From the IMG/VR virus record IMGVR_UViG_2651869695_000003: a stretch of 64,000 bases of DNA, one strand, 5' to 3'. This DNA is from a virus (Duplodnaviria > Heunggongvirae > Uroviricota > Caudoviricetes). The notes beneath the pieces were generated by a model. The model did not search any database. It worked only from the letters and a program-made list of their open reading frames with translations, and was not told where the DNA came from. Shown here in pieces: positions 12,356-33,853 of this stretch. Positions within the stretch are counted from its first letter, which is position 1, and every line of letters starts with the position of its first letter. The translations under genes were made by a program, and so were the position numbers.

Positions 12356-12912
12356 AACTGACGCCTGTTATTGCTGCACTGCGTGCCCGCTGTCCATATT
12401 TTGAAAACCGGGTTGCAGGCGCGGCCCAGTTCAAAAATCTGCCGGAGGTCGGAAAGCTGAAACTCCCGGCGGCATATGTTGTACCGGGTGATGATTCTCC
12501 GGGAGAAAACAAAAGCCAGACCGACTACTGGCAGGAGCTGAAAGAGGGCTTCTCCGTGGTTGTCATACTGAGTAACGGGCGTGATGAGCGCGGTCAGTTT
12601 GCTTCGTATGATGTGGTGGACGATGTCCGGCAGATGCTCTTTAAGGCCCTGCTGGGCTGGAACCCGGAAGCGTGCGGTAACCCGATTAACTATGACGGCG
12701 GCACGCTGCTGGATCTGAATCGTCATGAGCTGATTTATCAGTTCGATTTTTCGATCATCAGCGAGCTGACCGAAGACGATACCCGCCAGCAGGATGACCT
12801 GAACAGTCTGGATGAACTGCGAACGCTGGCGATTGATGTTGATTATCTCGATCCCGGTAACGGGCCTGACGGCGATATCGAACATCACACCGAAATAACC
12901 CTTCCTTCCTGA
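12352..12912 (+). CDS. Tail completion / neck protein (putative)
   Basis: 186 aa, translationally coupled, precedes sheath. Confidence 0.5.
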   Translation: MKLTPVIAALRARCPYFENRVAGAAQFKNLPEVGKLKLPAAYVVPGDDSPGENKSQTDYWQELKEGFSVVVILSNGRDERGQFASYDVVDDVRQMLFKALLGWNPEACGNPINYDGGTLLDLNRHELIYQFDFSIISELTEDDTRQQDDLNSLDELRTLAIDVDYLDPGNGPDGDIEHHTEITLPS

Positions 12913-12920
12913 GAATCTTC

Positions 12921-13091
12921 ATGTTTGTGAAACCTGTTAAAGGGCGGTCAGTGCCTGACCCTGCCCGCGGTGACCTTTTGCCCGCCGAAGGGCGAAATGT
13001 TGACGAGAACAACTACTGGCTGCGCCGTGAAGCAGCGGGTGATATCCGGCGCGTGAATAAAAAGGTGAACACCGATGACGATAAGCTTTAA
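12921..13091 (+). CDS. Small protein upstream of tail sheath (56 aa)
   Basis: ORF below the track's 60-aa cutoff, read manually; overlaps sheath start. Confidence 0.35.
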   Translation: MFVKPVKGRSVPDPARGDLLPAEGRNVDENNYWLRREAAGDIRRVNKKVNTDDDKL

Positions 13092-14571: not shown

Positions 14572-14927
14572 TGGCCCGTATCGGGGGAACCTGTTATTTC
14601 AAAATTGACGGTCAGCAGCTATCGCTGACCGGCGGCATTGAGGTGCCCATGAACAGGACGGTCAATGATGACATCATCGGCCTGGACGGTTCAGTGGACC
14701 GCAAGGAAACTCACCGTGCGCCTTATGTCAAAGGGACCTTCAAGGTGCCGAAGAATTTTCCGGTGAGCAAAATCACCTCGTCTGATGAGATGACCATCAC
14801 TGCCGAGCTGGCGAACGGTCAGGTCTATGTATTGTCGTCCGCCTGGCTGCACGGAGAAGCGAACCATAATGCCGAAGAAGGCACGGTTGATCTTGAGTTC
14901 CACGGTGAAGAAGGGGATTACCAGTAA
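14571..14927 (+). CDS. Tail tube protein (Mu M-like)
   Basis: 118 aa, directly after sheath. Confidence 0.75.
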   Translation: MARIGGTCYFKIDGQQLSLTGGIEVPMNRTVNDDIIGLDGSVDRKETHRAPYVKGTFKVPKNFPVSKITSSDEMTITAELANGQVYVLSSAWLHGEANHNAEEGTVDLEFHGEEGDYQ

Positions 14928-15196
14928 TGAAAGAGCTTGAGTTAAAGAAACCGATTATCGCTCATGGTGAGACACTCTCCGTACTGGAGTTTGATGAACC
15001 CACCGGGAAGGATGTCCGCGAGCTGGGGTATCCCTACCAGATGAATCAGGATGAGTCCGTCAGACTTCTGGCGCATGTGGTGTCGAAATACATTGTGCGG
15101 CTGGCGAAAGTGCCGCAAAGCTCTGTCGACCAGATGTCTCCGGCAGACCTGAATGCAGCGGCGTGGCTTGTGGCTGGTTTTTTCCTCCAGGCCTGA
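14927..15196 (+). CDS. Tail assembly chaperone (short form)
   Basis: 89 aa immediately upstream of tape measure gene. Confidence 0.6.
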   Translation: MKELELKKPIIAHGETLSVLEFDEPTGKDVRELGYPYQMNQDESVRLLAHVVSKYIVRLAKVPQSSVDQMSPADLNAAAWLVAGFFLQA

Positions 15197-15345
15197 CGGC
15201 TGAATACCTCACTGATCGCTTCTTTGACTGCGCCAGTTACTGGCGCATTAATCCCTTCGAATTGCTGAATATGCCGATCAGTGAAATTCCCTTGCTGGTC
15301 AGTCAGGCAAACAGGATAGAGCAGGAGAAACGCACACATGGCTGA
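14927..15345 (+). CDS. Tail assembly chaperone, -1 frameshift fusion product (long form)
   Basis: Overlapping -1 frame ORF 15163..15345; slippery heptamer T TTT TTC at 15178..15184. Confidence 0.5.
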
Positions 15346-17173
15346 ATTTGAGCTTAAGGCGTTGATCACCGGTGTCGACAGGCTTTCTCCCGCGCTGTCG
15401 AAAATGCAAAAGAAAATCCGGGGATTTAAACGCCAGGCGGAAGAAGCGTCACAGGGTGGGCTGGCGCTTGGTGGCGGACTGGCAGCGGGTCTGACGCTTT
15501 CCCTGAAATCTTATGCCGATCAGGAAAACGCCGCCACCGGGCTGAAAGTCGCCATGATGGATGCGAACGGCGAGGTTGGAAAGAGCTTTCAGGACATCAA
15601 TAAACTGGCTATTGGCCTGGGTAACCAGCTACCCGGTACAACGGCTGATTTCCAGAACATGATGCAGATGCTGGTGCGTCAGGGGATCCCGGCAGAAAAC
15701 ATTCTTGGTGGTGTGGGTAAAGCGACAGCTTATCTTGCGGTACAACTGAAAAAAACACCGGAAGCGGCTGCTGAGTTTGCTGCAAAGATGCAGGATGCTA
15801 CCGGAACGGCGTCAGAAGACATGATGGGGCTGTTCGACACTATCCAGAAGGCGTTTTATCTGGGCGTTGATGATACCAACATGTTGTCCTTCTTCACTAA
15901 AACCAGTTCTGTTCTGAAAATGGTGAATAAGGACGGTCTTCAGGCTGCACAGAGTCTTGCCCCCATCAGTGTCATGATGGATCAGATGGGGATGAACGGG
16001 GAGTCGGCAGGTAATGCCCTGCGAAAAGTTATCCAGTCCGGATTAAGCGTTAAGAAAATCAGGGACGTCAATAAAATCATGGCCCGCCAGAAACTCGGGG
16101 TACAGCTCGATTTTACTGATGGCAAAGGGAGTTTTGGCGGTCTTGATAACATGTTCAGGCAACTGGCAAAGCTGCGAAAACTGACCGACGTTAAGCGAAC
16201 CGGTGTACTTAAGGCAATATTTGGTGATGATGCCGAAACCCTTCAGGTGGTCAATGCGCTGATCGATAAAGGAAAGGATGGCTACGATCAGATCCAGCAG
16301 AAGATGAATAAACAGGCCAGCCTGAATAAACGTGTTCAGGCTCAGCTTGGTACGCTGTCCAACCTGTGGGAGGCAATGACGGGGACCGCAACTAACGGCC
16401 TTGCGGCTATTGGCGGCGCATTTTCTGGTGACGCTAAAAATATCACGCAATGGCTGGGGGAGTTAGGGGAAAAATTCACGAAGTTTGCGGATGAAAATCC
16501 CCGGGTTATTCGCGGCGTCGTCGGGCTTGCTGCCGGTCTTGCGATTCTGAAACTGGGATTGATGGGCGTTGGCGGTGCCATCAGTATTGTCAGCAGGATC
16601 ATGTCGATGACGCCGATTGGCATGATTGCGACGGCGATAGCCCTGGCTGCGGGATTAATTATCACTAACTGGGATGTTGTCGGACCTTATTTTAAGAAAC
16701 TCTGGGAAACCATTGGTCCTTATTTTGAGACTGGCTGGGAACTTCTTAAGAAGGTTTTTGCCTGGTCGCCGCTGGGGATGGTGATCAATAACTGGGGACC
16801 GGTTGTTAAGTGGTTTCAGGATATGTGGGACAAGCTGAAGCCAATTATTGAGTGGTTTACCGACAGTTCCGGTGACACGGTCGATGCCATTAACTCTGCG
16901 CAGTGGGGCGCGGGTGCTTATGATGCTTATGGGACGGGAATACCGGCGCGGGGATACACACCTTATCCGGCGGTAGATCCGGCTCAGTCAAACAACGCCT
17001 CCGATGCCACAGGCCTGAATCCCTTCATGATTAACAAAGCTTCTGCGCCAAAAGTTGATGGTGAGATCAAGGTCTCTTTTGTGAATTCGCCTCCGGGTAT
17101 GCGGGTTATGGAAACGCGATCCAGCGGTTTTGATGTCAGCCATGATGTTGGCTATACGCGCTTTGGCAGGTAA
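15338..17173 (+). CDS. Tail tape measure protein
   Basis: 611 aa, Ala/Gly-rich helical, hydrophobic C-terminal segment. Confidence 0.85.
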   Translation: MAEFELKALITGVDRLSPALSKMQKKIRGFKRQAEEASQGGLALGGGLAAGLTLSLKSYADQENAATGLKVAMMDANGEVGKSFQDINKLAIGLGNQLPGTTADFQNMMQMLVRQGIPAENILGGVGKATAYLAVQLKKTPEAAAEFAAKMQDATGTASEDMMGLFDTIQKAFYLGVDDTNMLSFFTKTSSVLKMVNKDGLQAAQSLAPISVMMDQMGMNGESAGNALRKVIQSGLSVKKIRDVNKIMARQKLGVQLDFTDGKGSFGGLDNMFRQLAKLRKLTDVKRTGVLKAIFGDDAETLQVVNALIDKGKDGYDQIQQKMNKQASLNKRVQAQLGTLSNLWEAMTGTATNGLAAIGGAFSGDAKNITQWLGELGEKFTKFADENPRVIRGVVGLAAGLAILKLGLMGVGGAISIVSRIMSMTPIGMIATAIALAAGLIITNWDVVGPYFKKLWETIGPYFETGWELLKKVFAWSPLGMVINNWGPVVKWFQDMWDKLKPIIEWFTDSSGDTVDAINSAQWGAGAYDAYGTGIPARGYTPYPAVDPAQSNNASDATGLNPFMINKASAPKVDGEIKVSFVNSPPGMRVMETRSSGFDVSHDVGYTRFGR

Positions 17174-17233
17174 TGAAAAATTAATCTGTTAATGAGTCCC
17201 ACTCCGGTGGGATTTTTTATGTACGGAGTTTAT

Positions 17234-18562
17234 ATGACGTGGAAAGACAGACTTCAGGACGCGTCATTTCGCGGTGTGCCGTTTAAGGTTGAAGAAGAAA
17301 GTGCGGGAACCGGTCGTCGTGTGGAAACGCACGAATACCCGAACCGCGACAAACCCTATACCGAAGACCTGGGGAAAATCACTTTCCGCCCGTCCATCAC
17401 GGCTTATGTGGTGGGAGATGACTGCTTTGACCAGCGCGATCGCCTGATTGACGCGCTGAATAAACCCGGTCCCGGCACGCTTGTCCATCCGACTTACGGT
17501 GAGCTGAAAGTCTGTGTTGACGGAGAGGTTCGGGTCAGCACATCGAAGAGTGAAGGGCGTATTGTCCGCTTTGACCTGAAGTTTGTCGAAGCGGGAGAAC
17601 TCTCTTACCCCACATCAGGTGCGGCGACGGCGCAGACGCTGATGTCATCCTGTTCTGCACTGGATGACTGCATCAGTGACAGTTTCAGTAGTTTCAGTAT
17701 CGATGGCGTGGCAGATTTTGTGCAGAACGACGTCGTCGGTAATGCCAGCACAATGCTTGGGTATGTTTCTGATGCGATGAAAGTGGTGGATTCTGCCGTA
17801 TCGGATGCCGCCAGGCTGTTGCAGGGGGATATCTCGGTACTTCTGCCGCCGCCATCGTCAGGCAAAAATTTCGTTGAGCAGGTGCAGAAAATGTGGCGTA
17901 CCGGGAAACGCCTTTATGGTAACGCCAGCGACCTGGTCACCATGATCAAAACGCTTTCCGGTGTCAGCCTCGGCAGCGATCTGCAACCGCGCGGCGTCTG
18001 GAAAACGGACAGTAAAACCACCGCCACGGCTACGCAGCAGCGTAACGTGGTTGCCAGCACCCTTCGTACGACCGCAATCAGCGAAGCGGCGTATGCCGTC
18101 ACCCGATTGCCTGCGCCAACAACTTCCGCGGTGATGCAGAATGCCGCAGTGGGGCAGGCAACAACACCTGCGCAGAGCACTGGCTGGCCTTCCGTCACGC
18201 ATCCGGCACTGAACAATGCACCGGCGGTGAAAAACACAGTTGACCTGCCGACGTGGGAAGAACTGACTGACATTCGCGACACACTGAATACGGCAATTGA
18301 TAAGGAGTTGTCCCGTACAACCAGTGATGCGCTGTTTCTGGCGCTGCGCCGGGTGAAAGCAGATCTGAATGCGGATATCAACACGCGCCTTGAACAGTCT
18401 GCACGGATCATTCAGCGCACGCCGGATGAGGTTTTACCCGCGCTGGTGCTGGCGGCGACCTGGTTTGATAACGCGGCGCGTGACGCGGACATTATCCGGC
18501 GTAATGCCATTACGCATCCCGGCTTTGTGCCGGTGATCCCTCTGAAGGTGCCAGTGCAATGA
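17234..18562 (+). CDS. DNA circularisation protein N-like (Mu gpN family)
   Basis: Motif WKDRLQDASFRGVPF at N-terminus; GGAG 6 nt upstream of ATG 17234; ORF track start 17192 is an upstream extension. Confidence 0.7.
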   Translation: MTWKDRLQDASFRGVPFKVEEESAGTGRRVETHEYPNRDKPYTEDLGKITFRPSITAYVVGDDCFDQRDRLIDALNKPGPGTLVHPTYGELKVCVDGEVRVSTSKSEGRIVRFDLKFVEAGELSYPTSGAATAQTLMSSCSALDDCISDSFSSFSIDGVADFVQNDVVGNASTMLGYVSDAMKVVDSAVSDAARLLQGDISVLLPPPSSGKNFVEQVQKMWRTGKRLYGNASDLVTMIKTLSGVSLGSDLQPRGVWKTDSKTTATATQQRNVVASTLRTTAISEAAYAVTRLPAPTTSAVMQNAAVGQATTPAQSTGWPSVTHPALNNAPAVKNTVDLPTWEELTDIRDTLNTAIDKELSRTTSDALFLALRRVKADLNADINTRLEQSARIIQRTPDEVLPALVLAATWFDNAARDADIIRRNAITHPGFVPVIPLKVPVQ

Positions 18563-19638
18563 ACGATAACGTCACGCTACGGGTAAATGGCCGGGAGTGG
18601 AATGGCTGGACATCGGTGCGCATCGGTGCCGGTATTGAACGGCTGGCGCGGGATTTCAGTGTGGAGATCACTCGCCAGTGGCCGGGAGATGAGGGTATCA
18701 CCACGCTTCAGCCGCGCATTAAAAACGGTTCAAAAGTGGAAGTGCTGATTGGTGATGAGCTGGTGATCACCGGCTGGGTGGAGGCGACGCCCGTTCGGTA
18801 CGATGCCCGTTCGGTCAGCACCGGTATTGCCGGACGTAGTCTGACGGCTGACCTGATTGACTGTGCAGCCGAACCGACACAGTTTAACGGACGCTCGCTG
18901 GTGCAGATTGCGCAGGCGCTTGCTGCGCCTTTCGGCATTGAGGTGGTGAACAGCGGTGCGCCGTCGGGTGTTATTCCTGATGTTCAGCCTGATCACGGTG
19001 AAACGGTGATTGAGGTAATCAACAAAATACTCGGTCAGCAGCAGGCGCTGGCTTACGACGACCCGCACGGCAGGCTGGTGATTGGCGGTATTGGCTCAAC
19101 GCGGGCACATACCGCGCTGGTACTTGGGGAAAACATCCTTTCCTGTGATACGGAGAAGAGTATCCGGGACCGGTTTTCTGTTTACCAGGTGGCGGGGCAG
19201 CGTGCCGGAAACGACGATGATTTCGGTGAGGCCACCACCACCGCGCTGCGGGCCCGCACAGAGGACGCATTTATTGCCCGTTACCGTCCGATGTATATCA
19301 GGCAGACAGGGCAGGCTACGGGGGCAGGCTGTATTGCGCGTGCTGACTTTGAAGCCCGGCAACGGGCGGCGCGGACGGATGAAACCACCTATGTGGTGCA
19401 GGGCTGGCGACAGGGTAACGGTACGCTGTGGCAACCCAACCAGCGGGTGATTGTCTTTGATCCGGTCTGTGGTTTTGACAATACCGAACTGCTTGTTTCG
19501 GAAGTCACGTTTACTCAGGACCAGAACGGCACCCTGACGGAAATCCGTGTCGGCCCGCCTGATGCTTATCTGCCTGAACCTGAAGCCCCCGGCGCGCGGA
19601 AAAAGAAAAAAGCCAGAGTACAGGAGGACCCGTTCTGA
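18559..19638 (+). CDS. Baseplate/tail protein (Mu gpP-like)
   Basis: 359 aa, synteny. Confidence 0.7.
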   Translation: MNDNVTLRVNGREWNGWTSVRIGAGIERLARDFSVEITRQWPGDEGITTLQPRIKNGSKVEVLIGDELVITGWVEATPVRYDARSVSTGIAGRSLTADLIDCAAEPTQFNGRSLVQIAQALAAPFGIEVVNSGAPSGVIPDVQPDHGETVIEVINKILGQQQALAYDDPHGRLVIGGIGSTRAHTALVLGENILSCDTEKSIRDRFSVYQVAGQRAGNDDDFGEATTTALRARTEDAFIARYRPMYIRQTGQATGAGCIARADFEARQRAARTDETTYVVQGWRQGNGTLWQPNQRVIVFDPVCGFDNTELLVSEVTFTQDQNGTLTEIRVGPPDAYLPEPEAPGARKKKKARVQEDPF

Positions 19639-20186
19639 TGAGGACGATTGAAGCCATGCAGCGACAACTTCTCGGCCTGATTGGGCGGGCAGTGGTGAAA
19701 AGCATCAGTGCCGCCACGAAATGTCAGACCGTGGATGTGTCCCTGATTGCCGGTGAACCCAAAGCCGGGGTTGAACATCTTGAACCCTACGGTTTTACCG
19801 CAAGGGCAAACAGCGGTGCGGAAGCGGTGGTGTTGTTTCCGGATGGCGACCGTTCTCATGCGGTGGTTGTTACGGTGTCGGACCGGCGCTACCGCCTGAA
19901 AGGGCTGCAGACGGGTGAGGTGGCTGTCTATGACGATCAGGGGCAGTCTGTGACGCTGACCCGGGAGGGGATCGTGGTGGACGGTGCAGGTAAAACGATC
20001 ACGTTTCGCAATGCGCCCAGAGCACGTTTTGAAATGGACCTGGAAGTGACCGGACAGGTGAAAGACCTGTGCGACTCCGGCGGCACCACCATGTCAGCGA
20101 TGCGGCTTGCCTATAACGGCCATTGTCACAGAGAGAACGGTCAGGGCAGTAACACCGACAAACCGGATAAAGCGATGGAGGCATGA
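19638..20186 (+). CDS. Baseplate assembly protein V (spike)
   Basis: 182 aa, synteny. Confidence 0.7.
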   Translation: MRTIEAMQRQLLGLIGRAVVKSISAATKCQTVDVSLIAGEPKAGVEHLEPYGFTARANSGAEAVVLFPDGDRSHAVVVTVSDRRYRLKGLQTGEVAVYDDQGQSVTLTREGIVVDGAGKTITFRNAPRARFEMDLEVTGQVKDLCDSGGTTMSAMRLAYNGHCHRENGQGSNTDKPDKAMEA

Positions 20187-20611
20187 TGGAACTGTGGCTG
20201 ACGGTGAACGGTAAACGCACCTGCGCCAGCGCACCGCTGGATCCGCTGACCCGCGCCGTGGTGATTTCCCTGTTTACCTGGCGGCGGGCGGAGCCTGATG
20301 ACAATGCCGACGTCCCGATGGGATGGTGGGGGGATACCTGGCCTGCGGTACAGAATGACCGTTACGGCTCCCGGCTGTGGCTGCTTCAGCGCGGCAAACT
20401 GACCAATCAGCTGGTGCAGACGGTAAGGGGGTATATCCGCGAATGCCTGCAATGGATGATTGATGACGGTGTGGTGTCCCGTATTGATCTGGATATCCGC
20501 CGCACCGGGATTAATGAACTGGGTAACAGTATCACTCTCTGGCGTCGTGACGGACCGGTAATGATTTCTTTTGATGATCTGTGGAGTGCGATAACGCATG
20601 GCGGACAGTGA
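20183..20611 (+). CDS. Baseplate protein gp25/GPW-like
   Basis: 142 aa, synteny. Confidence 0.7.
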   Translation: MMELWLTVNGKRTCASAPLDPLTRAVVISLFTWRRAEPDDNADVPMGWWGDTWPAVQNDRYGSRLWLLQRGKLTNQLVQTVRGYIRECLQWMIDDGVVSRIDLDIRRTGINELGNSITLWRRDGPVMISFDDLWSAITHGGQ

Positions 20612-21656
20612 ATTTCAGCGCCCGACGCTGGCAGAAAATATCAGTATGCTCCGTAACGATTTATTCGCCAGGCTGGACGTCAGCGACACGCTCCGGCGCA
20701 TGGATGAAGACGTGCGGGCAAAGGTGTATGCGGCGGCGCTGCATACGGTTTACGGTTACATCGATTATCTGGCAATGAACATGCTGCCTGACCTGTGCGA
20801 TGAGTCCTGGCTGGCGAGACATGCTGCGATGAAACGGTGTCCGCGCAAGGGGGCCACGTCTGCCAGCGGGTATATGCGCTGGGAAGGTGTCAGCGATGGC
20901 CTGAAGGTGACCGCCGGGAGTGTTATTCAGCGCGATGATCTGGTTCAGTACACGGCAACTTCTGATGCAACCAGCTCAGGTGGAGTCCTGCGCGTGCCGA
21001 TCGCCTGCTCAACTGCAGGCGCGGTCGGTAACGCTGACGACGGTACGGCATTAATCCTGGTCACGCCGGTGAATGGTCTGCCGTCTTCCGGTGTGGCAGA
21101 TACCCTGACTGGCGGATTCGATACTGAAGATCTGGAAACGTGGCGCGCCCGCGTCATTGAGCGGTATTACTGGACGCCGCAGGGCGGGGCTGACGGGGAC
21201 TATGTCGTCTGGGCTAAAGAAGTGCCCGGCATTACCCGCGCATGGACATACCGTCACTGGATGGGAACGGGGACTGTCGGTGTGATGATTGCCGGCAGTG
21301 ACCTGATTAATCCCATTCCGGAAGAATCAACGGAAACGGCGGCAAGACAACATATCGGGCCACTGGCCCCGGTGGCAGGCTCTGATTTGTATGTGTTCAG
21401 GCCGGCGGCGCATACGGTGGATTTTCATATCCGCGTGACGCCGGACACACCAGAAATACGGGCTGCCATTACCGCGGAGTTGCGTTCGTTCCTGCTGCGT
21501 GATGGTTATCCGCAGGGAGAACTGAAGGTATCGCGTATCAGTGAGGCGATTTCCGGTGCGAACGGGGAATACAGCCATCAATTGCTTGCACCGGCGGACA
21601 ATATCTCCATTGCAAAAAATGAACTGGCGGTTCTGGGGACGATTTCATGGACGTGA
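20598..21656 (+). CDS. Baseplate J-like protein
   Basis: 352 aa, synteny. Confidence 0.8.
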
Positions 21657-22231
21657 CAAACGATGATTACATCCGTCTGTTGTCGGCACTGCTGCCGCCC
21701 GGTCCGGCGTGGTCAGCCAGCGATCCGGCGATTGCCGGTACGGCACCGTCATTAACCCGTGTTCATCAGCGTGCGGATGCCCTGATGCGGGAGCTGGATC
21801 CGCGCACCACCACCGAACTGATAAACCGCTGGGAGCGTCTGTGCGGCCTGCCGGATGAATGTATTCCTACAGGGACACAGACCCTTCGCCAGCGCCAGCA
21901 ACGGCTGGATGCGAAGGTTAACCTGTCGGGTGGCATCAACGAGGATTTTTATCTTGCACAGCTTGCTGCCCTGGGCAGACCAGATGCTACCATCACGCGA
22001 TACGACAAAAGCACGTTCACCTGCTCATCGGCCTGTACTGACGCGGTGAATGCGCCGGAATGGCGGTATTACTGGCAGATCAACATGCCAGCCGCCACCA
22101 ACACCACCTGGATGACATGTGGCGATCCCTGTGATTCCGCACTGCGTATCTGGGGCGACACCGTTGTCGAATGTGTGCTTAACAAACTCTGCCCGTCGCA
22201 TACCTACGTAATTTTTAAATATCCGGAGTAA
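21647..22231 (+). CDS. Tail protein, YmfQ/Mu gp48-like (DUF2313)
   Basis: 194 aa; immediately upstream of tail fibre. Confidence 0.65.
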
Positions 22232-22234
22232 TCC

Positions 22235-23218
22235 ATGCATCGTATAGACACGAAAACCGCGCAGAAGGATAAGTTCGGCGCGGGTAAGAACGGTTTTACC
22301 CGTGGTAACCCCCAGACCGGCACACCTGCCACCGATCTTGATGATGACTACTTTGATATGTTGCAGGAAGAACTCTGCAGCGTGGTGGAGGCATCCGGTG
22401 CCAGCCTGGAGAAGGGGCGGCATGACCAGCTGCTTACCGCGCTTCGTGCGCTGCTGTTAAGCCGCAAGAATCCGTTTAGCGATATCAAATCGGATGGCAC
22501 GGTGAAAACGGCTCTCGAAAACCTTGGTTTGGGAGAAGCCAGATTCTCTGGTCGTTTGTTAAACACGAATATTTTTAAAAGCTCTGGAAAATATATCCCA
22601 ACACTAGGGACAAAAAAGATAAGGGTCATTGCCTCTGGTGGCGGTGGCGGCGGCGGTGGGGTTCCTGAAACAACAGAAAATCAGCAGGCAACAGCCGGAG
22701 CTGGATTGAGCGGTGCATTTATTGAAGCATTTTTCGAGGTTGATAATGATTTCGAAGTCAACGTTATTATCGGTGCTGCAGGTAAAGGGGGGGGAGCCGG
22801 AAGAAATTCAGGTAGTGAAGGTGGCACAACTTATTTCGGTTCCCTGATAACTGCACCGGGTGGTACAGGCGGTGGCGCGGGGGGAGCATCTGCAAACACA
22901 TCATATATTCAGGGTATTTCATGGGGTGCCAGTCCGACATCGTCCGGTACTGTACTAAGAGCATTTCGCTGTAGTGCAAAAACACCAGGAGCAATGGTTA
23001 TCTCTGTTAAAGCTGTTGCAGGTGGTACCGGGGGGGATACACCACTAGGTTCAGGCGGTATAGGTGGTGCAAGTTCTTCATCATTCAGCGGACGTGGTGG
23101 TGGTAAAGCTGAGGGCTTTGGTGCTGGCGGAGGCGGAGCCTGCGCACCTGCCGGAAGTGAGGCTCAATCGGGAGGTGACGGTGCCCCGGGAATAGTTATT
23201 GTTGAGGAGTATGCCTGA
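22235..23218 (+). CDS. Tail fibre protein, variant A (constant N-terminus 102 aa + Gly-rich variable C-terminus)
   Basis: First 102 aa identical to the fibre at 23869..24531; C-terminus rich in GGxGG repeats. Confidence 0.8.
22512..22537. other. Candidate Din-family invertase crossover site (left)
   Basis: CTCTCGAAAACC-TT-GGTTTGGGAGAA fits the hix/gix/cix-type pattern (TTnTCnnAAACC-NN-GGTTTnnGAnAA, from memory); lies at the constant/variable junction. Confidence 0.55.
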
Positions 23219-23481
23219 TGAGTAATTTTGCTCTGATTGAACATGGCGTGGTGAAAAATATTATTATCTGGGATGGAGAGGGTGATTTATTCTCTAACTG
23301 CGAAATTATAAATATTGATCATATAGATGCAGGCGTCGGTTGGTTCTATTCTGACGGAGAGTTTATAGCACCACCGGAACCGGAAATGACTGAATATGAT
23401 GTTGGTAATATCGACGCGGTGATGGAATCAGATACCAGCACCGCGCCGGACGTCATCTGGCCTGAACTGCCGGAGGCGTAG
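23218..23481 (+). CDS. Tail fibre assembly protein for variant A
   Basis: 87 aa; start overlaps fibre A stop (TGATG); C-terminus ...[12 protein letters not shown] resembles Tfa C-termini. Confidence 0.55.
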   Translation: MSNFALIEHGVVKNIIIWDGEGDLFSNCEIINIDHIDAGVGWFYSDGEFIAPPEPEMTEYDVGNIDAVMESDTSTAPDVIWPELPEA

Positions 23482-23872
23482 GCCATTCAATATCTGGCGC
23501 ACCGGAAGTATCGACCAGTTCCAGTGCGTCCAGGTAATCCAGCCACAAATTATATTGCGCCAGTTCCTCACCTTTCAGACGACCAATAGCGGCTTTACCA
23601 GGCCATTGCTTACTGTTCATGTATTCGTTGGCCTGTTCAATAAGTATACTTTTCATTCCCTCCGCTTCAGCTATTTCCTGTTCCTGTGTCTTCGCTGGAT
23701 ATTCAGTAAGTACAGGGTAGTTATCCGGATTATTGATAATAATTTTCCCCGTACTCTGACCATTCATAAGTTCATAATAAAGAGCATCTTCAATATCGAA
23801 AGCATCATCGGGAATATCGCTGTTATTTTCAGAGAAAAATCCCTGAACAGATGGGGACCATTTCATTTTCAT
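23453..23872 (-). CDS. Tail fibre assembly protein for variant B
   Basis: 139 aa; coupled to fibre B; C-terminus ...[15 protein letters not shown]; 3' end overlaps convergent tfa A by 29 nt. Confidence 0.7.
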
Positions 23873-24531
23873 AATTTCCCAATTCCTAAAATGTGGACAT
23901 CATCAGCCTTACGGGCATTCCAGGTGACAATTACATCGGTAGAGTGACGATTAACTGAGATTGCATATGCTTCGTTAGTCGAGCCAGAAACTTTTGTAGC
24001 AAACACAGCAAACAGGACACCAAATGACTGGGGCCATTTATAGCCTGACAGCTGATAATTACCATTATTCAGTGTTACAGCTTTGGCTGCTGCACTTGAT
24101 GGAATCGTCAGCCACTGAAGTATCAACCCTCCTGGCAAAAGTTGTTTTCCGTAATAATCCCTCACCCCACTAAATGAAGCCATGTCCGGTATCTGATTTT
24201 CCCCTGTTCCCACATTTCGTTTTGCCGCTTCTCCCAAACCAAGGTTTTCGAGAGCCGTTTTCACCGTGCCATCCGATTTGATATCGCTAAACGGATTCTT
24301 GCGGCTTAACAGCAGCGCACGAAGCGCGGTAAGCAGCTGGTCATGCCGCCCCTTCTCCAGGCTGGCACCGGATGCCTCCACCACGCTGCAGAGTTCTTCC
24401 TGCAACATATCAAAGTAGTCATCATCAAGATCGGTGGCAGGTGTGCCGGTCTGGGGGTTACCACGGGTAAAACCGTTCTTACCCGCGCCGAACTTATCCT
24501 TCTGCGCGGTTTTCGTGTCTATACGATGCAT
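23869..24531 (-). CDS. Tail fibre protein, variant B (same constant N-terminus, different C-terminal receptor-binding region)
   Basis: N-terminal 102 aa identical to variant A, then unrelated C-terminus. Confidence 0.8.
24229..24254. other. Candidate Din-family invertase crossover site (right, inverted)
   Basis: TTCTCCCAAACC-AA-GGTTTTCGAGAG, reverse complement of left site. Confidence 0.55.
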
Positions 24532-24534
24532 GGA

Positions 24535-25119
24535 TTACTCCGGATATTTAAAAATTACGTAGGTATGCGACGGGCAGAGTTTGTTAAGCACACATTCGAC
24601 AACGGTGTCGCCCCAGATACGCAGTGCGGAATCACAGGGATCGCCACATGTCATCCAGGTGGTGTTGGTGGCGGCTGGCATGTTGATCTGCCAGTAATAC
24701 CGCCATTCCGGCGCATTCACCGCGTCAGTACAGGCCGATGAGCAGGTGAACGTGCTTTTGTCGTATCGCGTGATGGTAGCATCTGGTCTGCCCAGGGCAG
24801 CAAGCTGTGCAAGATAAAAATCCTCGTTGATGCCACCCGACAGGTTAACCTTCGCATCCAGCCGTTGCTGGCGCTGGCGAAGGGTCTGTGTCCCTGTAGG
24901 AATACATTCATCCGGCAGGCCGCACAGACGCTCCCAGCGGTTTATCAGTTCGGTGGTGGTGCGCGGATCCAGCTCCCGCATCAGGGCATCCGCACGCTGA
25001 TGAACACGGGTTAATGACGGTGCCGTACCGGCAATCGCCGGATCGCTGGCTGACCACGCCGGACCGGGCGGCAGCAGTGCCGACAACAGACGGATGTAAT
25101 CATCGTTTGTCACGTCCAT
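24535..25119 (-). CDS. Tail protein YmfQ/gp48-like (copy 2)
   Basis: Reverse-complement identical copy of 21647..22231. Confidence 0.65.
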
Positions 25120-26168
25120 GAAATCGTCCCCAGAACCGCCAGTTCATTTTTTGCAATGGAGATATTGTCCGCCGGTGCAAGCAATTGATGGCTGTATTCC
25201 CCGTTCGCACCGGAAATCGCCTCACTGATACGCGATACCTTCAGTTCTCCCTGCGGATAACCATCACGCAGCAGGAACGAACGCAACTCCGCGGTAATGG
25301 CAGCCCGTATTTCTGGTGTGTCCGGCGTCACGCGGATATGAAAATCCACCGTATGCGCCGCCGGCCTGAACACATACAAATCAGAGCCTGCCACCGGGGC
25401 CAGTGGCCCGATATGTTGTCTTGCCGCCGTTTCCGTTGATTCTTCCGGAATGGGATTAATCAGGTCACTGCCGGCAATCATCACACCGACAGTCCCCGTT
25501 CCCATCCAGTGACGGTATGTCCATGCGCGGGTAATGCCGGGCACTTCTTTAGCCCAGACGACATAGTCCCCGTCAGCCCCGCCCTGCGGCGTCCAGTAAT
25601 ACCGCTCAATGACGCGGGCGCGCCACGTTTCCAGATCTTCAGTATCGAATCCGCCAGTCAGGGTATCTGCCACACCGGAAGACGGCAGACCATTCACCGG
25701 CGTGACCAGGATTAATGCCGTACCGTCGTCAGCGTTACCGACCGCGCCTGCAGTTGAGCAGGCGATCGGCACGCGCAGGACTCCACCTGAGCTGGTTGCA
25801 TCAGAAGTTGCCGTGTACTGAACCAGATCATCGCGCTGAATAACACTCCCGGCGGTCACCTTCAGGCCATCGCTGACACCTTCCCAGCGCATATACCCGC
25901 TGGCAGACGTGGCCCCCTTGCGCGGACACCGTTTCATCGCAGCATGTCTCGCCAGCCAGGACTCATCGCACAGGTCAGGCAGCATGTTCATTGCCAGATA
26001 ATCGATGTAACCGTAAACCGTATGCAGCGCCGCCGCATACACCTTTGCCCGCACGTCTTCATCCATGCGCCGGAGCGTGTCGCTGACGTCCAGCCTGGCG
26101 AATAAATCGTTACGGAGCATACTGATATTTTCTGCCAGCGTCGGGCGCTGAAATTCACTGTCCGCCAT
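25110..26168 (-). CDS. Baseplate J-like protein (copy 2)
   Basis: Identical inverted copy of 20598..21656. Confidence 0.8.
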
Positions 26169-26583
26169 GCGTTATCGCACTCCACAGATCATCAAAAGAA
26201 ATCATTACCGGTCCGTCACGACGCCAGAGAGTGATACTGTTACCCAGTTCATTAATCCCGGTGCGGCGGATATCCAGATCAATACGGGACACCACACCGT
26301 CATCAATCATCCATTGCAGGCATTCGCGGATATACCCCCTTACCGTCTGCACCAGCTGATTGGTCAGTTTGCCGCGCTGAAGCAGCCACAGCCGGGAGCC
26401 GTAACGGTCATTCTGTACCGCAGGCCAGGTATCCCCCCACCATCCCATCGGGACGTCGGCATTGTCATCAGGCTCCGCCCGCCGCCAGGTAAACAGGGAA
26501 ATCACCACGGCGCGGGTCAGCGGATCCAGCGGTGCGCTGGCGCAGGTGCGTTTACCGTTCACCGTCAGCCACAGTTCCATCAT
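26155..26583 (-). CDS. Baseplate gp25/GPW-like (copy 2)
   Basis: Identical inverted copy of 20183..20611. Confidence 0.7.
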   Translation of the reverse strand: MMELWLTVNGKRTCASAPLDPLTRAVVISLFTWRRAEPDDNADVPMGWWGDTWPAVQNDRYGSRLWLLQRGKLTNQLVQTVRGYIRECLQWMIDDGVVSRIDLDIRRTGINELGNSITLWRRDGPVMISFDDLWSAITHGGQ

Positions 26584-27128
26584 GCCTCCATCGCTTTATC
26601 CGGTTTGTCGGTGTTACTGCCCTGACCGTTCTCTCTGTGACAATGGCCGTTATAGGCAAGCCGCATCGCTGACATGGTGGTGCCGCCGGAGTCGCACAGG
26701 TCTTTCACCTGTCCGGTCACTTCCAGGTCCATTTCAAAACGTGCTCTGGGCGCATTGCGAAACGTGATCGTTTTACCTGCACCGTCCACCACGATCCCCT
26801 CCCGGGTCAGCGTCACAGACTGCCCCTGATCGTCATAGACAGCCACCTCACCCGTCTGCAGCCCTTTCAGGCGGTAGCGCCGGTCCGACACCGTAACAAC
26901 CACCGCATGAGAACGGTCGCCATCCGGAAACAACACCACCGCTTCCGCACCGCTGTTTGCCCTTGCGGTAAAACCGTAGGGTTCAAGATGTTCAACCCCG
27001 GCTTTGGGTTCACCGGCAATCAGGGACACATCCACGGTCTGACATTTCGTGGCGGCACTGATGCTTTTCACCACTGCCCGCCCAATCAGGCCGAGAAGTT
27101 GTCGCTGCATGGCTTCAATCGTCCTCAT
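26580..27128 (-). CDS. Baseplate assembly protein V (copy 2)
   Basis: Identical inverted copy of 19638..20186. Confidence 0.7.
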   Translation of the reverse strand: MRTIEAMQRQLLGLIGRAVVKSISAATKCQTVDVSLIAGEPKAGVEHLEPYGFTARANSGAEAVVLFPDGDRSHAVVVTVSDRRYRLKGLQTGEVAVYDDQGQSVTLTREGIVVDGAGKTITFRNAPRARFEMDLEVTGQVKDLCDSGGTTMSAMRLAYNGHCHRENGQGSNTDKPDKAMEA

Positions 27129-28207
27129 CAGAACGGGTCCTCCTGTACTCTGGCTTTTTTCTTTTTCCGCGCGCCGGGGGCTTCAGGTTCAGGCAGATAA
27201 GCATCAGGCGGGCCGACACGGATTTCCGTCAGGGTGCCGTTCTGGTCCTGAGTAAACGTGACTTCCGAAACAAGCAGTTCGGTATTGTCAAAACCACAGA
27301 CCGGATCAAAGACAATCACCCGCTGGTTGGGTTGCCACAGCGTACCGTTACCCTGTCGCCAGCCCTGCACCACATAGGTGGTTTCATCCGTCCGCGCCGC
27401 CCGTTGCCGGGCTTCAAAGTCAGCACGCGCAATACAGCCTGCCCCCGTAGCCTGCCCTGTCTGCCTGATATACATCGGACGGTAACGGGCAATAAATGCG
27501 TCCTCTGTGCGGGCCCGCAGCGCGGTGGTGGTGGCCTCACCGAAATCATCGTCGTTTCCGGCACGCTGCCCCGCCACCTGGTAAACAGAAAACCGGTCCC
27601 GGATACTCTTCTCCGTATCACAGGAAAGGATGTTTTCCCCAAGTACCAGCGCGGTATGTGCCCGCGTTGAGCCAATACCGCCAATCACCAGCCTGCCGTG
27701 CGGGTCGTCGTAAGCCAGCGCCTGCTGCTGACCGAGTATTTTGTTGATTACCTCAATCACCGTTTCACCGTGATCAGGCTGAACATCAGGAATAACACCC
27801 GACGGCGCACCGCTGTTCACCACCTCAATGCCGAAAGGCGCAGCAAGCGCCTGCGCAATCTGCACCAGCGAGCGTCCGTTAAACTGTGTCGGTTCGGCTG
27901 CACAGTCAATCAGGTCAGCCGTCAGACTACGTCCGGCAATACCGGTGCTGACCGAACGGGCATCGTACCGAACGGGCGTCGCCTCCACCCAGCCGGTGAT
28001 CACCAGCTCATCACCAATCAGCACTTCCACTTTTGAACCGTTTTTAATGCGCGGCTGAAGCGTGGTGATACCCTCATCTCCCGGCCACTGGCGAGTGATC
28101 TCCACACTGAAATCCCGCGCCAGCCGTTCAATACCGGCACCGATGCGCACCGATGTCCAGCCATTCCACTCCCGGCCATTTACCCGTAGCGTGACGTTAT
28201 CGTTCAT
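27128..28207 (-). CDS. Baseplate/tail protein gpP-like (copy 2)
   Basis: Identical inverted copy of 18559..19638. Confidence 0.7.
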   Translation of the reverse strand: MNDNVTLRVNGREWNGWTSVRIGAGIERLARDFSVEITRQWPGDEGITTLQPRIKNGSKVEVLIGDELVITGWVEATPVRYDARSVSTGIAGRSLTADLIDCAAEPTQFNGRSLVQIAQALAAPFGIEVVNSGAPSGVIPDVQPDHGETVIEVINKILGQQQALAYDDPHGRLVIGGIGSTRAHTALVLGENILSCDTEKSIRDRFSVYQVAGQRAGNDDDFGEATTTALRARTEDAFIARYRPMYIRQTGQATGAGCIARADFEARQRAARTDETTYVVQGWRQGNGTLWQPNQRVIVFDPVCGFDNTELLVSEVTFTQDQNGTLTEIRVGPPDAYLPEPEAPGARKKKKARVQEDPF

Positions 28208-29532
28208 TGCACTGGCACCTTCAGAGGGATCACCGGCACAAAGCCGGGATGCGTAATGGCATTACGCCGGATAATGTCCGCGTCACGCGCCGCGTTATCA
28301 AACCAGGTCGCCGCCAGCACCAGCGCGGGTAAAACCTCATCCGGCGTGCGCTGAATGATCCGTGCAGACTGTTCAAGGCGCGTGTTGATATCCGCATTCA
28401 GATCTGCTTTCACCCGGCGCAGCGCCAGAAACAGCGCATCACTGGTTGTACGGGACAACTCCTTATCAATTGCCGTATTCAGTGTGTCGCGAATGTCAGT
28501 CAGTTCTTCCCACGTCGGCAGGTCAACTGTGTTTTTCACCGCCGGTGCATTGTTCAGTGCCGGATGCGTGACGGAAGGCCAGCCAGTGCTCTGCGCAGGT
28601 GTTGTTGCCTGCCCCACTGCGGCATTCTGCATCACCGCGGAAGTTGTTGGCGCAGGCAATCGGGTGACGGCATACGCCGCTTCGCTGATTGCGGTCGTAC
28701 GAAGGGTGCTGGCAACCACGTTACGCTGCTGCGTAGCCGTGGCGGTGGTTTTACTGTCCGTTTTCCAGACGCCGCGCGGTTGCAGATCGCTGCCGAGGCT
28801 GACACCGGAAAGCGTTTTGATCATGGTGACCAGGTCGCTGGCGTTACCATAAAGGCGTTTCCCGGTACGCCACATTTTCTGCACCTGCTCAACGAAATTT
28901 TTGCCTGACGATGGCGGCGGCAGAAGTACCGAGATATCCCCCTGCAACAGCCTGGCGGCATCCGATACGGCAGAATCCACCACTTTCATCGCATCAGAAA
29001 CATACCCAAGCATTGTGCTGGCATTACCGACGACGTCGTTCTGCACAAAATCTGCCACGCCATCGATACTGAAACTACTGAAACTGTCACTGATGCAGTC
29101 ATCCAGTGCAGAACAGGATGACATCAGCGTCTGCGCCGTCGCCGCACCTGATGTGGGGTAAGAGAGTTCTCCCGCTTCGACAAACTTCAGGTCAAAGCGG
29201 ACAATACGCCCTTCACTCTTCGATGTGCTGACCCGAACCTCTCCGTCAACACAGACTTTCAGCTCACCGTAAGTCGGATGGACAAGCGTGCCGGGACCGG
29301 GTTTATTCAGCGCGTCAATCAGGCGATCGCGCTGGTCAAAGCAGTCATCTCCCACCACATAAGCCGTGATGGACGGGCGGAAAGTGATTTTCCCCAGGTC
29401 TTCGGTATAGGGTTTGTCGCGGTTCGGGTATTCGTGCGTTTCCACACGACGACCGGTTCCCGCACTTTCTTCTTCAACCTTAAACGGCACACCGCGAAAT
29501 GACGCGTCCTGAAGTCTGTCTTTCCACGTCAT
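28204..29532 (-). CDS. DNA circularisation protein N-like (copy 2)
   Basis: Identical inverted copy of 17234..18562. Confidence 0.7.
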   Translation of the reverse strand: MTWKDRLQDASFRGVPFKVEEESAGTGRRVETHEYPNRDKPYTEDLGKITFRPSITAYVVGDDCFDQRDRLIDALNKPGPGTLVHPTYGELKVCVDGEVRVSTSKSEGRIVRFDLKFVEAGELSYPTSGAATAQTLMSSCSALDDCISDSFSSFSIDGVADFVQNDVVGNASTMLGYVSDAMKVVDSAVSDAARLLQGDISVLLPPPSSGKNFVEQVQKMWRTGKRLYGNASDLVTMIKTLSGVSLGSDLQPRGVWKTDSKTTATATQQRNVVASTLRTTAISEAAYAVTRLPAPTTSAVMQNAAVGQATTPAQSTGWPSVTHPALNNAPAVKNTVDLPTWEELTDIRDTLNTAIDKELSRTTSDALFLALRRVKADLNADINTRLEQSARIIQRTPDEVLPALVLAATWFDNAARDADIIRRNAITHPGFVPVIPLKVPVQ

Positions 29533-29592
29533 ATAAACTCCGTACATAAAAAATCCCACCGGAGTGGGACTCATTAACAGATTAATTTTTCA

Positions 29593-31428
29593 TTACCTGC
29601 CAAAGCGCGTATAGCCAACATCATGGCTGACATCAAAACCGCTGGATCGCGTTTCCATAACCCGCATACCCGGAGGCGAATTCACAAAAGAGACCTTGAT
29701 CTCACCATCAACTTTTGGCGCAGAAGCTTTGTTAATCATGAAGGGATTCAGGCCTGTGGCATCGGAGGCGTTGTTTGACTGAGCCGGATCTACCGCCGGA
29801 TAAGGTGTGTATCCCCGCGCCGGTATTCCCGTCCCATAAGCATCATAAGCACCCGCGCCCCACTGCGCAGAGTTAATGGCATCGACCGTGTCACCGGAAC
29901 TGTCGGTAAACCACTCAATAATTGGCTTCAGCTTGTCCCACATATCCTGAAACCACTTAACAACCGGTCCCCAGTTATTGATCACCATCCCCAGCGGCGA
30001 CCAGGCAAAAACCTTCTTAAGAAGTTCCCAGCCAGTCTCAAAATAAGGACCAATGGTTTCCCAGAGTTTCTTAAAATAAGGTCCGACAACATCCCAGTTA
30101 GTGATAATTAATCCCGCAGCCAGGGCTATCGCCGTCGCAATCATGCCAATCGGCGTCATCGACATGATCCTGCTGACAATACTGATGGCACCGCCAACGC
30201 CCATCAATCCCAGTTTCAGAATCGCAAGACCGGCAGCAAGCCCGACGACGCCGCGAATAACCCGGGGATTTTCATCCGCAAACTTCGTGAATTTTTCCCC
30301 TAACTCCCCCAGCCATTGCGTGATATTTTTAGCGTCACCAGAAAATGCGCCGCCAATAGCCGCAAGGCCGTTAGTTGCGGTCCCCGTCATTGCCTCCCAC
30401 AGGTTGGACAGCGTACCAAGCTGAGCCTGAACACGTTTATTCAGGCTGGCCTGTTTATTCATCTTCTGCTGGATCTGATCGTAGCCATCCTTTCCTTTAT
30501 CGATCAGCGCATTGACCACCTGAAGGGTTTCGGCATCATCACCAAATATTGCCTTAAGTACACCGGTTCGCTTAACGTCGGTCAGTTTTCGCAGCTTTGC
30601 CAGTTGCCTGAACATGTTATCAAGACCGCCAAAACTCCCTTTGCCATCAGTAAAATCGAGCTGTACCCCGAGTTTCTGGCGGGCCATGATTTTATTGACG
30701 TCCCTGATTTTCTTAACGCTTAATCCGGACTGGATAACTTTTCGCAGGGCATTACCTGCCGACTCCCCGTTCATCCCCATCTGATCCATCATGACACTGA
30801 TGGGGGCAAGACTCTGTGCAGCCTGAAGACCGTCCTTATTCACCATTTTCAGAACAGAACTGGTTTTAGTGAAGAAGGACAACATGTTGGTATCATCAAC
30901 GCCCAGATAAAACGCCTTCTGGATAGTGTCGAACAGCCCCATCATGTCTTCTGACGCCGTTCCGGTAGCATCCTGCATCTTTGCAGCAAACTCAGCAGCC
31001 GCTTCCGGTGTTTTTTTCAGTTGTACCGCAAGATAAGCTGTCGCTTTACCCACACCACCAAGAATGTTTTCTGCCGGGATCCCCTGACGCACCAGCATCT
31101 GCATCATGTTCTGGAAATCAGCCGTTGTACCGGGTAGCTGGTTACCCAGGCCAATAGCCAGTTTATTGATGTCCTGAAAGCTCTTTCCAACCTCGCCGTT
31201 CGCATCCATCATGGCGACTTTCAGCCCGGTGGCGGCGTTTTCCTGATCGGCATAAGATTTCAGGGAAAGCGTCAGACCCGCTGCCAGTCCGCCACCAAGC
31301 GCCAGCCCACCCTGTGACGCTTCTTCCGCCTGGCGTTTAAATCCCCGGATTTTCTTTTGCATTTTCGACAGCGCGGGAGAAAGCCTGTCGACACCGGTGA
31401 TCAACGCCTTAAGCTCAAATTCAGCCAT
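29593..31428 (-). CDS. Tail tape measure protein (copy 2)
   Basis: Identical inverted copy of 15338..17173. Confidence 0.85.
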   Translation of the reverse strand: MAEFELKALITGVDRLSPALSKMQKKIRGFKRQAEEASQGGLALGGGLAAGLTLSLKSYADQENAATGLKVAMMDANGEVGKSFQDINKLAIGLGNQLPGTTADFQNMMQMLVRQGIPAENILGGVGKATAYLAVQLKKTPEAAAEFAAKMQDATGTASEDMMGLFDTIQKAFYLGVDDTNMLSFFTKTSSVLKMVNKDGLQAAQSLAPISVMMDQMGMNGESAGNALRKVIQSGLSVKKIRDVNKIMARQKLGVQLDFTDGKGSFGGLDNMFRQLAKLRKLTDVKRTGVLKAIFGDDAETLQVVNALIDKGKDGYDQIQQKMNKQASLNKRVQAQLGTLSNLWEAMTGTATNGLAAIGGAFSGDAKNITQWLGELGEKFTKFADENPRVIRGVVGLAAGLAILKLGLMGVGGAISIVSRIMSMTPIGMIATAIALAAGLIITNWDVVGPYFKKLWETIGPYFETGWELLKKVFAWSPLGMVINNWGPVVKWFQDMWDKLKPIIEWFTDSSGDTVDAINSAQWGAGAYDAYGTGIPARGYTPYPAVDPAQSNNASDATGLNPFMINKASAPKVDGEIKVSFVNSPPGMRVMETRSSGFDVSHDVGYTRFGR

Positions 31429-31839
31429 GTGTGCGTTTCTCCTGCTCTATCCTGTTTGCCTGACTGACCAGCAAGGGAATTTCACTGATCGGCATATTCA
31501 GCAATTCGAAGGGATTAATGCGCCAGTAACTGGCGCAGTCAAAGAAGCGATCAGTGAGGTATTCAGCCGTCAGGCCTGGAGGAAAAAACCAGCCACAAGC
31601 CACGCCGCTGCATTCAGGTCTGCCGGAGACATCTGGTCGACAGAGCTTTGCGGCACTTTCGCCAGCCGCACAATGTATTTCGACACCACATGCGCCAGAA
31701 GTCTGACGGACTCATCCTGATTCATCTGGTAGGGATACCCCAGCTCGCGGACATCCTTCCCGGTGGGTTCATCAAACTCCAGTACGGAGAGTGTCTCACC
31801 ATGAGCGATAATCGGTTTCTTTAACTCAAGCTCTTTCAT
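31421..31839 (-). CDS. Tail assembly chaperone incl. -1 frameshift extension (copy 2)
   Basis: Identical inverted copy of 14927..15345; slippery site at 31582..31588. Confidence 0.5.
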
Positions 31840-32195
31840 TACTGGTAATCCCCTTCTTCACCGTGGAACTCAAGATCAACCGTGCCTTCTTCGGCATTAT
31901 GGTTCGCTTCTCCGTGCAGCCAGGCGGACGACAATACATAGACCTGACCGTTCGCCAGCTCGGCAGTGATGGTCATCTCATCAGACGAGGTGATTTTGCT
32001 CACCGGAAAATTCTTCGGCACCTTGAAGGTCCCTTTGACATAAGGCGCACGGTGAGTTTCCTTGCGGTCCACTGAACCGTCCAGGCCGATGATGTCATCA
32101 TTGACCGTCCTGTTCATGGGCACCTCAATGCCGCCGGTCAGCGATAGCTGCTGACCGTCAATTTTGAAATAACAGGTTCCCCCGATACGGGCCAT
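31839..32195 (-). CDS. Tail tube protein (copy 2)
   Basis: Identical inverted copy of 14571..14927. Confidence 0.75.
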   Translation of the reverse strand: MARIGGTCYFKIDGQQLSLTGGIEVPMNRTVNDDIIGLDGSVDRKETHRAPYVKGTFKVPKNFPVSKITSSDEMTITAELANGQVYVLSSAWLHGEANHNAEEGTVDLEFHGEEGDYQ

Positions 32196-33691: not shown

Positions 33692-33845
33692 CGGTGTTCA
33701 CCTTTTTATTCACGCGCCGGATATCACCCGCTGCTTCACGGCGCAGCCAGTAGTTGTTCTCGTCAACATTTCGCCCTTCGGCGGGCAAAAGGTCACCGCG
33801 GGCAGGGTCAGGCACTGACCGCCCTTTAACAGGTTTCACAAACAT
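33675..33845 (-). CDS. Small protein upstream of sheath (copy 2)
   Basis: Inverted copy of 12921..13091. Confidence 0.35.
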   Translation of the reverse strand: MFVKPVKGRSVPDPARGDLLPAEGRNVDENNYWLRREAAGDIRRVNKKVNTDDDKL

Positions 33846-33853
33846 GAAGATTC

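Follow-up and report, generated by a model that had tools for sequence, protein, structure and literature searches.

The window analyzed here, 64,000 nt of viral DNA held in IMG/VR as IMGVR_UViG_2651869695_000003, consists of bases 1-64000 of the 64,025-bp draft contig JHST01000046.1 (GCA_001266115.1). It carries a prophage with an invertible tail-fiber cassette between two inverted crossover sites of the Din family, and it has no invertase gene. We conclude that the missing invertase and a perfect 22.5-kb inverted copy of the prophage beyond the cassette are very probably the result of a fold-back misassembly through an actively inverting segment. The real element would be an ordinary Pin-type (Din family) switch in an e14/SfV-like Escherichia coli prophage integrated beside ssrA. 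The sites are already known, as e14 pixL, and they lie in a known kind of tail-fiber inversion switch on a known kind of prophage.

Two pixL sites flank the tail-fiber cassette

The crossover sites are CTCTCGAAAACC-TT-GGTTTGGGAGAA at 22512-22537 and its reverse complement at 24229-24254. On the canonical strand, both read TTCTCCCAAACC AA GGTTTTCGAGAG. A table of Din-family sites gives this 26-bp string as e14 pixL, and both 26-mers are identical to that K-12 site at 26 of 26 positions (PMC3241671, Table 3). An earlier note on this DNA had recognized the 26-bp pattern of two half-sites at both places; the 26/26 identity makes that assignment stronger than a fit to the general pattern. Aligning them to curated sites, as that note proposed, gives a match far above the shuffled expectation. 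Two exact copies of the 26-mer are present in the window, whereas 100 dinucleotide-preserving shuffles give an expectation of 0.00, even when 3 mismatches are allowed.

Each site has the build of a Din site, with 26 bp, two 12-bp imperfectly inverted half-sites and a 2-bp core. The first copy is on the minus strand, with its core dinucleotide at 22524-22525 and its outer half-site (22512-22523) within the constant part of the fiber gene. The second copy, on the plus strand, is the identical 26 bp inverted, with its core AA at 24241-24242. The two are therefore an inverted pair that flanks a segment, and both cores are AA. Each differs from the Din palindromic consensus by one mismatch. When up to 2 mismatches to this consensus are allowed, the window contains five matches against 0.32 expected by chance, and four of the five are the two pixL sites counted on both strands. 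The fifth is a weak site at 57871-57896 (2 mismatches, TTCAAAAAAAAGGAACTTTGATAGAA), inside a 272-aa gene after the integrase, and it is also found in the relatives L009-L011. Because 0.32 matches are expected, it is most likely due to chance.

A complete Din unit has both pixL and pixR. The window carries pixL, the fiber-proximal type, twice, and pixR, its invertase-proximal partner, was not found in the window. In natural relatives, pixR (TTCTCCCAAACC AA CGTTTATGAAAA) takes the position of the window's second pixL copy.

The cassette between the sites (22540..24226, 1687 nt) is an analogue of the e14 P segment. It holds two alternative fiber C-termini and their accessory genes, arranged convergently. 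The constant fiber N-terminus runs from 22235 to the site and is about 101 aa long. Fiber variant 1 (22235..23218, plus strand, 327 aa) consists of this constant part (about aa 1-101) and a glycine-rich variable C-terminus with a weak match to Pfam Gly_rich_2. It is paired with an 87-aa gene (23218..23481, plus strand) that belongs to no Pfam family and always travels with the cassette. On the minus strand, a 139-aa tail-fiber assembly protein (Caudo_TAP, 23453..23872) is paired with fiber variant 2 (23869..24531, 220 aa). Variant 2 owes its full length here solely to the right arm of the inverted repeat, which supplies a second copy of the constant N-terminus.

In the Hin, Gin, Cin and Pin systems, cleavage of both sites by the serine invertase takes place at the central dinucleotide; the inner halves are swapped, which flips the cassette. 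A Pin-type invertase would cut both of the present sites at the central AA/TT dinucleotide with the same outcome. The flip would join the constant N-terminus either to the glycine-rich end (327 aa, followed by the 87-aa gene) or to the shorter end (220 aa, followed by Caudo_TAP). By analogy with those systems, it would be a host-range switch of a well-known kind.

The window lacks an invertase gene

In a complete Din unit, an invertase gene of about 185-200 aa with Resolvase and HTH_7 domains lies beside one site, and the 64 kb contain no such gene. The window was searched for a serine recombinase by tblastn and by phmmer --max, using two Din invertases from related loci as queries, and the best match had an E value of only 0.84. 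Precomputed Pfam matches for 12-33 kb are to Mu-type tail and baseplate proteins, with no Resolvase domain among them. Pfam searches of the genes at 46-64 kb found recombinases only in the form of a tyrosine integrase, the IS21 genes and fragments of a second tyrosine integrase. These results agree with the earlier note, which saw no serine recombinase among the open reading frames of the 64 kb. A non-Din serine recombinase or a tyrosine invertase was also considered as the missing enzyme. This idea was rejected, as the window contains no recombinase genes other than those for the tyrosine integrase of the prophage, a broken integrase of the island and the IS21 transposase.

In Hin, Gin and Cin, the 5' portion of the invertase gene contains the recombinational enhancer, which is bound by Fis and acts in cis. 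When the DNA of pin and its surroundings was compared with the window by blastn, there was no match. DNA homologous to pin is thus absent from the window, and Fis sites are too degenerate for sequence alone to exclude an unrelated enhancer.

Relatives carry pixR and pin beside the same cassette

The natural order in relatives is fiber gene, pixL, the same 1687 nt, pixR and pin. The prophages of two draft assemblies, L006 and L007, have 99.98-100 % identity to the window over 8 kb. Both follow the window through its right arm and then across the entire cassette as far as base 22519, within the left site. Past this base, they read TTCTCCCAAACC AA CGTTTATGAAAA, which is pixR at 26 of 26 positions, and a 184-aa gene with Resolvase and HTH_7 domains begins 53 nt beyond it. 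The natural inverted repeat in relatives of this type is 21 nt long with one mismatch, and its spacer is exactly 1687 nt, equal to that of the window.

The same cassette occurs in opposite orientations in the complete genomes G1/2 (L002) and 2016-02-324 (L003), and pinE directly adjoins it in each. Among 10 further contexts of the cassette's 87-aa gene, nine have a full-length Resolvase gene adjoining the cassette. In the tenth, L031, a 124-aa Resolvase fragment lies about 0.6 kb away. The invertase gene is just past the distal site, where the earlier note expected it, in 11 of the 12 natural contexts examined. Across natural loci (for example L002, L003, L006, L007, L024 and L025), the site pair consists of one fiber-type and one invertase-type site.

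The cassette, with its 87-aa gene and 139-aa assembly protein, is found on three tail backbones in L024-L033: P2-like, SfV/e14-like and one of the Phage_Wedge1/Sheath_initiator type. All three backbones have sites of the same pix type. This distribution in the sequences compared indicates that the whole switch module is exchanged horizontally between tail backbones.

Both joints of the fold-back are natural joints

The arms of the inverted repeat, 1-22539 and 24227-46765, are 100 % complementary over 22,539 nt, with 1687 nt between them. Their identity ends 2 nt beyond the site, just as the earlier note had described. Since the window begins at base 1 of the contig, so does the left arm. Relative to the natural order, pixR and pin are replaced in the contig by an inverted copy of the fiber side, at least 22.5 kb long, that stops at the contig start. 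The earlier note had placed an inverted phage copy in the position of the invertase gene; this proved correct, and the copy is 100 % identical. The arms are thus identical and the shorter one is ended by the contig end, without divergence, as is characteristic of an assembly artifact.

At the left joint, the sequence constant part-pixL-CAGATTCTC... is what one cassette orientation normally shows on the fiber side, as in L003. Reading the right joint backwards gives constant part-pixL-GGCAAAACG..., which is normal on the fiber side for the other orientation, as in L006. Because L002 and L003 hold the cassette in opposite orientations beside pinE, each joint of the window is a natural joint of one orientation. 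The sole novelty of the contig is that the joints of both orientations are found within one sequence.

Whole-genome sequencing of single-colony cultures has shown the e14 P segment in both orientations at a ratio of 1:1 (PMC4272514). With a segment in this state, an assembler can therefore walk from the prophage into the segment and back out into the prophage reversed. For the present element, the true order would be fiber constant part, pixL, the 1687-nt cassette, pixR and pin, and the sequenced culture would have held both cassette orientations. The reads would support four links, from each end of the cassette to the fiber side and to the pin side, so that the constant part with pixL would be joined both to the left end of the cassette and to its right end. 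Given four supported links, a path from the fiber side through the cassette to the fiber side reversed would be supported at every k-mer, and read pairs shorter than 1.7 kb could not reject it. The assembler would enter the cassette at the fiber side, exit by the second joint and retrace the same prophage in reverse. The pixR-pin side would be left on another contig of the assembly, predicted to read TTCTCCCAAACCAACGTTTATGAAAA followed by the pin gene. A perfect repeat of 22.5 kb is beyond true resolution by a short-read assembler. If the reads were short, arms at 100 % identity would simply reflect a double use of the same reads.

Fold-backs recur in draft contigs and are absent from finished genomes

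To 5,426 complete E. coli genomes, the fold-back was compared as a single query. Parts of it are matched by 2,623 of them, and none spans both arms; the best match consists of one arm plus the cassette, 79 % of the query. None of 50,697 phage records covers both arms either.

The comparison set for other fold-backs was 80 IMG/VR loci that encode a related assembly protein. Eight of the 80 have a pair of sites of the same type, and from the core of these sites a perfect inverted repeat extends outward. Five of these (L066, L069, L081, L090 and L092) show the fiber-side form. The other three (L038, L041 and L083) show the mirror form, in which the invertase-proximal site is at both ends of the cassette. 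The invertase gene is on both sides in L083, and the left arm of L038 and L041 (71-75 nt) is too short to hold one. The cassette of L041 is the 1687-nt cassette of the window. The shorter arm stops exactly at the contig end in all six fold-backs with a visible end (L038, L041, L066, L069, L083 and L092). It is 54-75 nt long in four of them (L038, L041, L066 and L092), and the remaining two have shorter arms of 811 nt and 1,819 nt. No fold-back contig has an internal outer boundary of the duplication. L069, the second fold-back tested, was also without a counterpart among the complete E. coli genomes. The structure is therefore found in draft contigs, including its reciprocal form, and is absent from finished genomes, as would be the case for an artifact.

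Contigs often end at or within the cassette, as seen in L008 and many of the IMG/VR loci. In 554 of 1,040 collection blocks, the longest contig with the cassette's 87-aa gene is shorter than 2 kb. These short contigs and contig ends show that assemblers routinely fail at the segment. A scan of genome contigs for the 21-nt natural repeat returned matches from other species only, and some of those contigs end at the site.

Several other loci deserve mention. L020, a 2,058-bp contig of Lonsdalea, ends at a pix-type site and is another assembly break at such a switch. L023 (JAEWTL010000032.1, 5,794 bp), binned as a 'Bacillota bacterium' metagenome-assembled genome, has an exact pixL near the contig end and is probably enterobacterial phage DNA in the wrong bin. 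L059 (IMGVR_UViG_2698536335_000014, 4724-9200) contains three Din sites. It also has an inverted repeat of 912 nt, and both limits of this repeat lie within the contig. Invertase sequence is present on both sides of one of its cassettes, and a third, fiber-type site lies 1.7 kb further on. Unlike that of the other fold-backs, its repeat does not reach the contig end, and L059 could be either a real two-invertase arrangement or a more complex misassembly. In L112 (IMGVR_UViG_2534681675_000025, 5578-7421), a cassette is flanked by two different fiber-type sites, and the 6 kb to its left and to its right contain no invertase. The locus may belong to a multi-segment (Min-like) inversion region.

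Weighing misassembly against real duplication

Some points weigh against the explanation by misassembly. The pixR-pin contig is a prediction. A true recombination at the core dinucleotide would yield exactly the same sequence, and recurrence in other contigs is also expected of a recurrent biological event. The earlier note had offered two alternatives: that the invertase gene was bypassed by a fold-back, or that inversion is driven in trans or by the long repeats. The first names the right structure, for which the evidence favors an origin in the assembler. The second is not needed, since only a real duplication would call for it.

A real head-to-head (palindromic) duplication could arise by recombination between two prophage copies, on sister chromosomes or in replicating phage DNA. 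Pin could join pixL of one copy to pixR of the other, or RecA could make a crossover within oppositely oriented 1.7-kb cassettes. The products would be A-pixL-cassette-pixL'-A' and the reciprocal pin-pixR-cassette-pixR'-pin. Such an event would account for a junction that falls within 16 nt that include the crossover dinucleotide, and for the pixL base (C) next to the core on both sides. It would also account for the presence of both the fiber-side and the reciprocal invertase-side product among public contigs. We nevertheless regard it as quite unlikely. It is well established from Hin and Gin that Din invertases act in cis within one supercoiled domain, through a synapse assembled by the enhancer. 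By this route, a circular chromosome would become an inverted dimer, and no isolate could have such a dimer as its clonal state; the structure is also in no finished genome. In addition, no contig has an outer boundary, and the arms always meet the contig end. Neither an outer boundary nor a second junction of the duplicated block was seen in the window, where the repeat reaches the contig start, as it also would if the boundary lay beyond the contig.

If the fold-back were real, Din sites or cassettes would recurrently make perfect head-to-head prophage duplications of tens of kilobases, and we see a slim chance of this. The invertase would then be lost on one product and duplicated on the other. 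The nine contigs, that of the window and the eight described above, would record a biological side reaction of tail-fiber switches, not the behavior of assemblers.

Another route to a real inverted duplication is replication snap-back, or template switching, at the 21-nt inverted repeat formed by pixL and pixR. The result would correspond to the first junction in the tandem inversion duplications described for Salmonella. Such events use structures of this type, with a 21-nt repeat and a 1687-nt loop, and the predicted junction sequence is the same as that observed. These events are rare, though, and need selection to become clonal; they also require a second junction, and none was seen. The mirror forms and the 54-75-nt arms at contig ends (L038, L041, L066 and L092) fit walks through an assembly graph better than they fit errors of replication, and the structure is absent from complete genomes. 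We therefore consider snap-back very improbable.

In a further reading, the prophage truly has no invertase, and the cassette between its two pixL sites would be flipped in trans by a Pin paralogue encoded at another place in the genome, or through homologous recombination of the long arms with each other. We think this extremely improbable. PinQ, PinR and PinE can all invert the e14 P segment in trans (PMC12529663), and two inverted pixL sites with identical AA cores are a formally competent substrate. This reading presupposes a real duplication, though, and the cis enhancer of characterized Din systems is probably missing along with the gene, as blastn found no match to pin or its surroundings. 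Furthermore, all but one of the natural relatives examined have a full-length invertase gene directly beside the cassette. Two independent prophage copies were rejected, as the arms are 100 % identical even though relatives at 99.99 % identity differ by 1-2 bases in 8 kb, and as there is a single attachment end.

Comparison with known systems

Plasterk and van de Putte are said to have described, in 1985, the P segment of e14 in E. coli K-12, with its pixL and pixR sites and the PinE invertase. In addition to the shared pixL, the core and inner half-site of the window (TTGGTTTGGGAGAAG) match the repeat reported for e14. The logic is the same, with a constant fiber N-terminus and one of two C-termini, each having its own assembly gene, and so is the tail backbone (YmfQ/gp48, baseplate J). 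The e14 segment is 1797 nt long, whereas that of the window is 1687 nt with a glycine-rich fiber, and the cassette content differs. In the window contig, the second site is pixL in place of pixR and pin is missing; we attribute both differences to assembly.

The Mu G segment (gix/Gin), the P1 C segment (cix/Cin), the Salmonella H segment (hix/Hin) and the shufflon-like Min system of p15B (mix) share the 26-bp site with two 12-bp half-sites and a 2-bp core. All except Hin are tail-fiber host-range switches like that of the window. Their half-sites and cores differ from those of the window (the gix core is GA), a comparison made by site table only.

The baseplate and fiber region of phages SfV, SfI, SfII, SfIV and Escherichia phage SKA5 is 95-97 % identical to that of the window, and SKA5 has the same layout of fiber, cassette and invertase. 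These phages differ from the window in carrying other cassette variants, and their records include the invertase and no fold-back. The contig also resembles the fold-back (hairpin or palindromic) contigs that arise when assemblers run through an inverted repeat or a segment that inverts. Like the window, they have perfect arms, turn exactly at a natural inverted repeat and have a shorter arm that ends at the contig end. They likewise recur in unrelated drafts, including the mirror form, and are absent from finished genomes.

Prophage anatomy and host

The left arm (1..22539, plus strand) represents the late region of a prophage that is SfV/e14-like and has a Mu-type tail, and it is the 100 % identical reverse complement of 24227-46765. 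Its genes are those for lysis, head, sheath, tube, tape measure, baseplate, YmfQ/gp48 and the fiber N-terminus. The right arm (24227..46765, minus strand) is the same late region, and it runs on unbroken into the early region, the tyrosine integrase and an ssrA-type attachment repeat. We take the right arm to be the genuine single copy of the prophage. The contig start (window 1-591) falls within a DUF968/HNHc_6 prophage gene, and the right arm (46175-47170) crosses the same point unbroken. A repeat common to other lambdoid prophages may have stopped the assembler there.

By Pfam, the genes at 46-64 kb are a lambdoid early region, the tyrosine integrase (56202-57377), istA and istB of IS21 (58607-60406) and a second tyrosine integrase in fragments. 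The IS21-family element, in the region 58607-61407, has istA at 59342-60406 and istB at 58607-59341, both on the minus strand. It lies beside or within the fragmented integrase gene, which is part of the ssrA-linked island and is represented by an Arm-DNA-bind_3 domain at 60459-60782 and a catalytic fragment at 61066-61407. Further on is a perfect 24-nt inverted repeat, 61722-61745 and 62618-62641, with 872 nt between its arms. In complete E. coli genomes, this region is annotated as degenerate 'integrase core domain' pseudogenes, and because of this location the repeat is probably the ends of a decayed insertion sequence.

Window positions 60862-63928 are 100 % identical to the chromosome of E. 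coli RM14723, in an island adjoining ssrA, and this identity indicates that the host is E. coli. No prophage was found at that ssrA locus in RM14723, which shares the neighborhood of 60862-63928. In RM14723, the 3' end of ssrA together with the spacer preceding intA has 86 % identity to the window sequence at about 58242-58536, which probably represents the prophage's attachment repeat on the integrase side. The contig has only this end of the prophage, with the integrase and the ssrA repeat, and the other end is missing from it. A search of the window for a tmRNA or tRNA gene found none. Therefore, the intact ssrA should lie past the missing pin end.

Implications

A cassette whose two orientations coexist in a culture can give a draft assembly a giant perfect palindrome, a second full-length fiber gene and a prophage without an invertase, and none of these probably exists in the strain. 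Roughly a tenth of the related public contigs sampled carry this type of fold-back. Screening for fold-backs is advisable in surveys of phage structure, 'orphan' inversion sites and large inverted repeats. For the strain that was sequenced, the contig provides indirect evidence that the tail-fiber switch was actively flipping in its culture.

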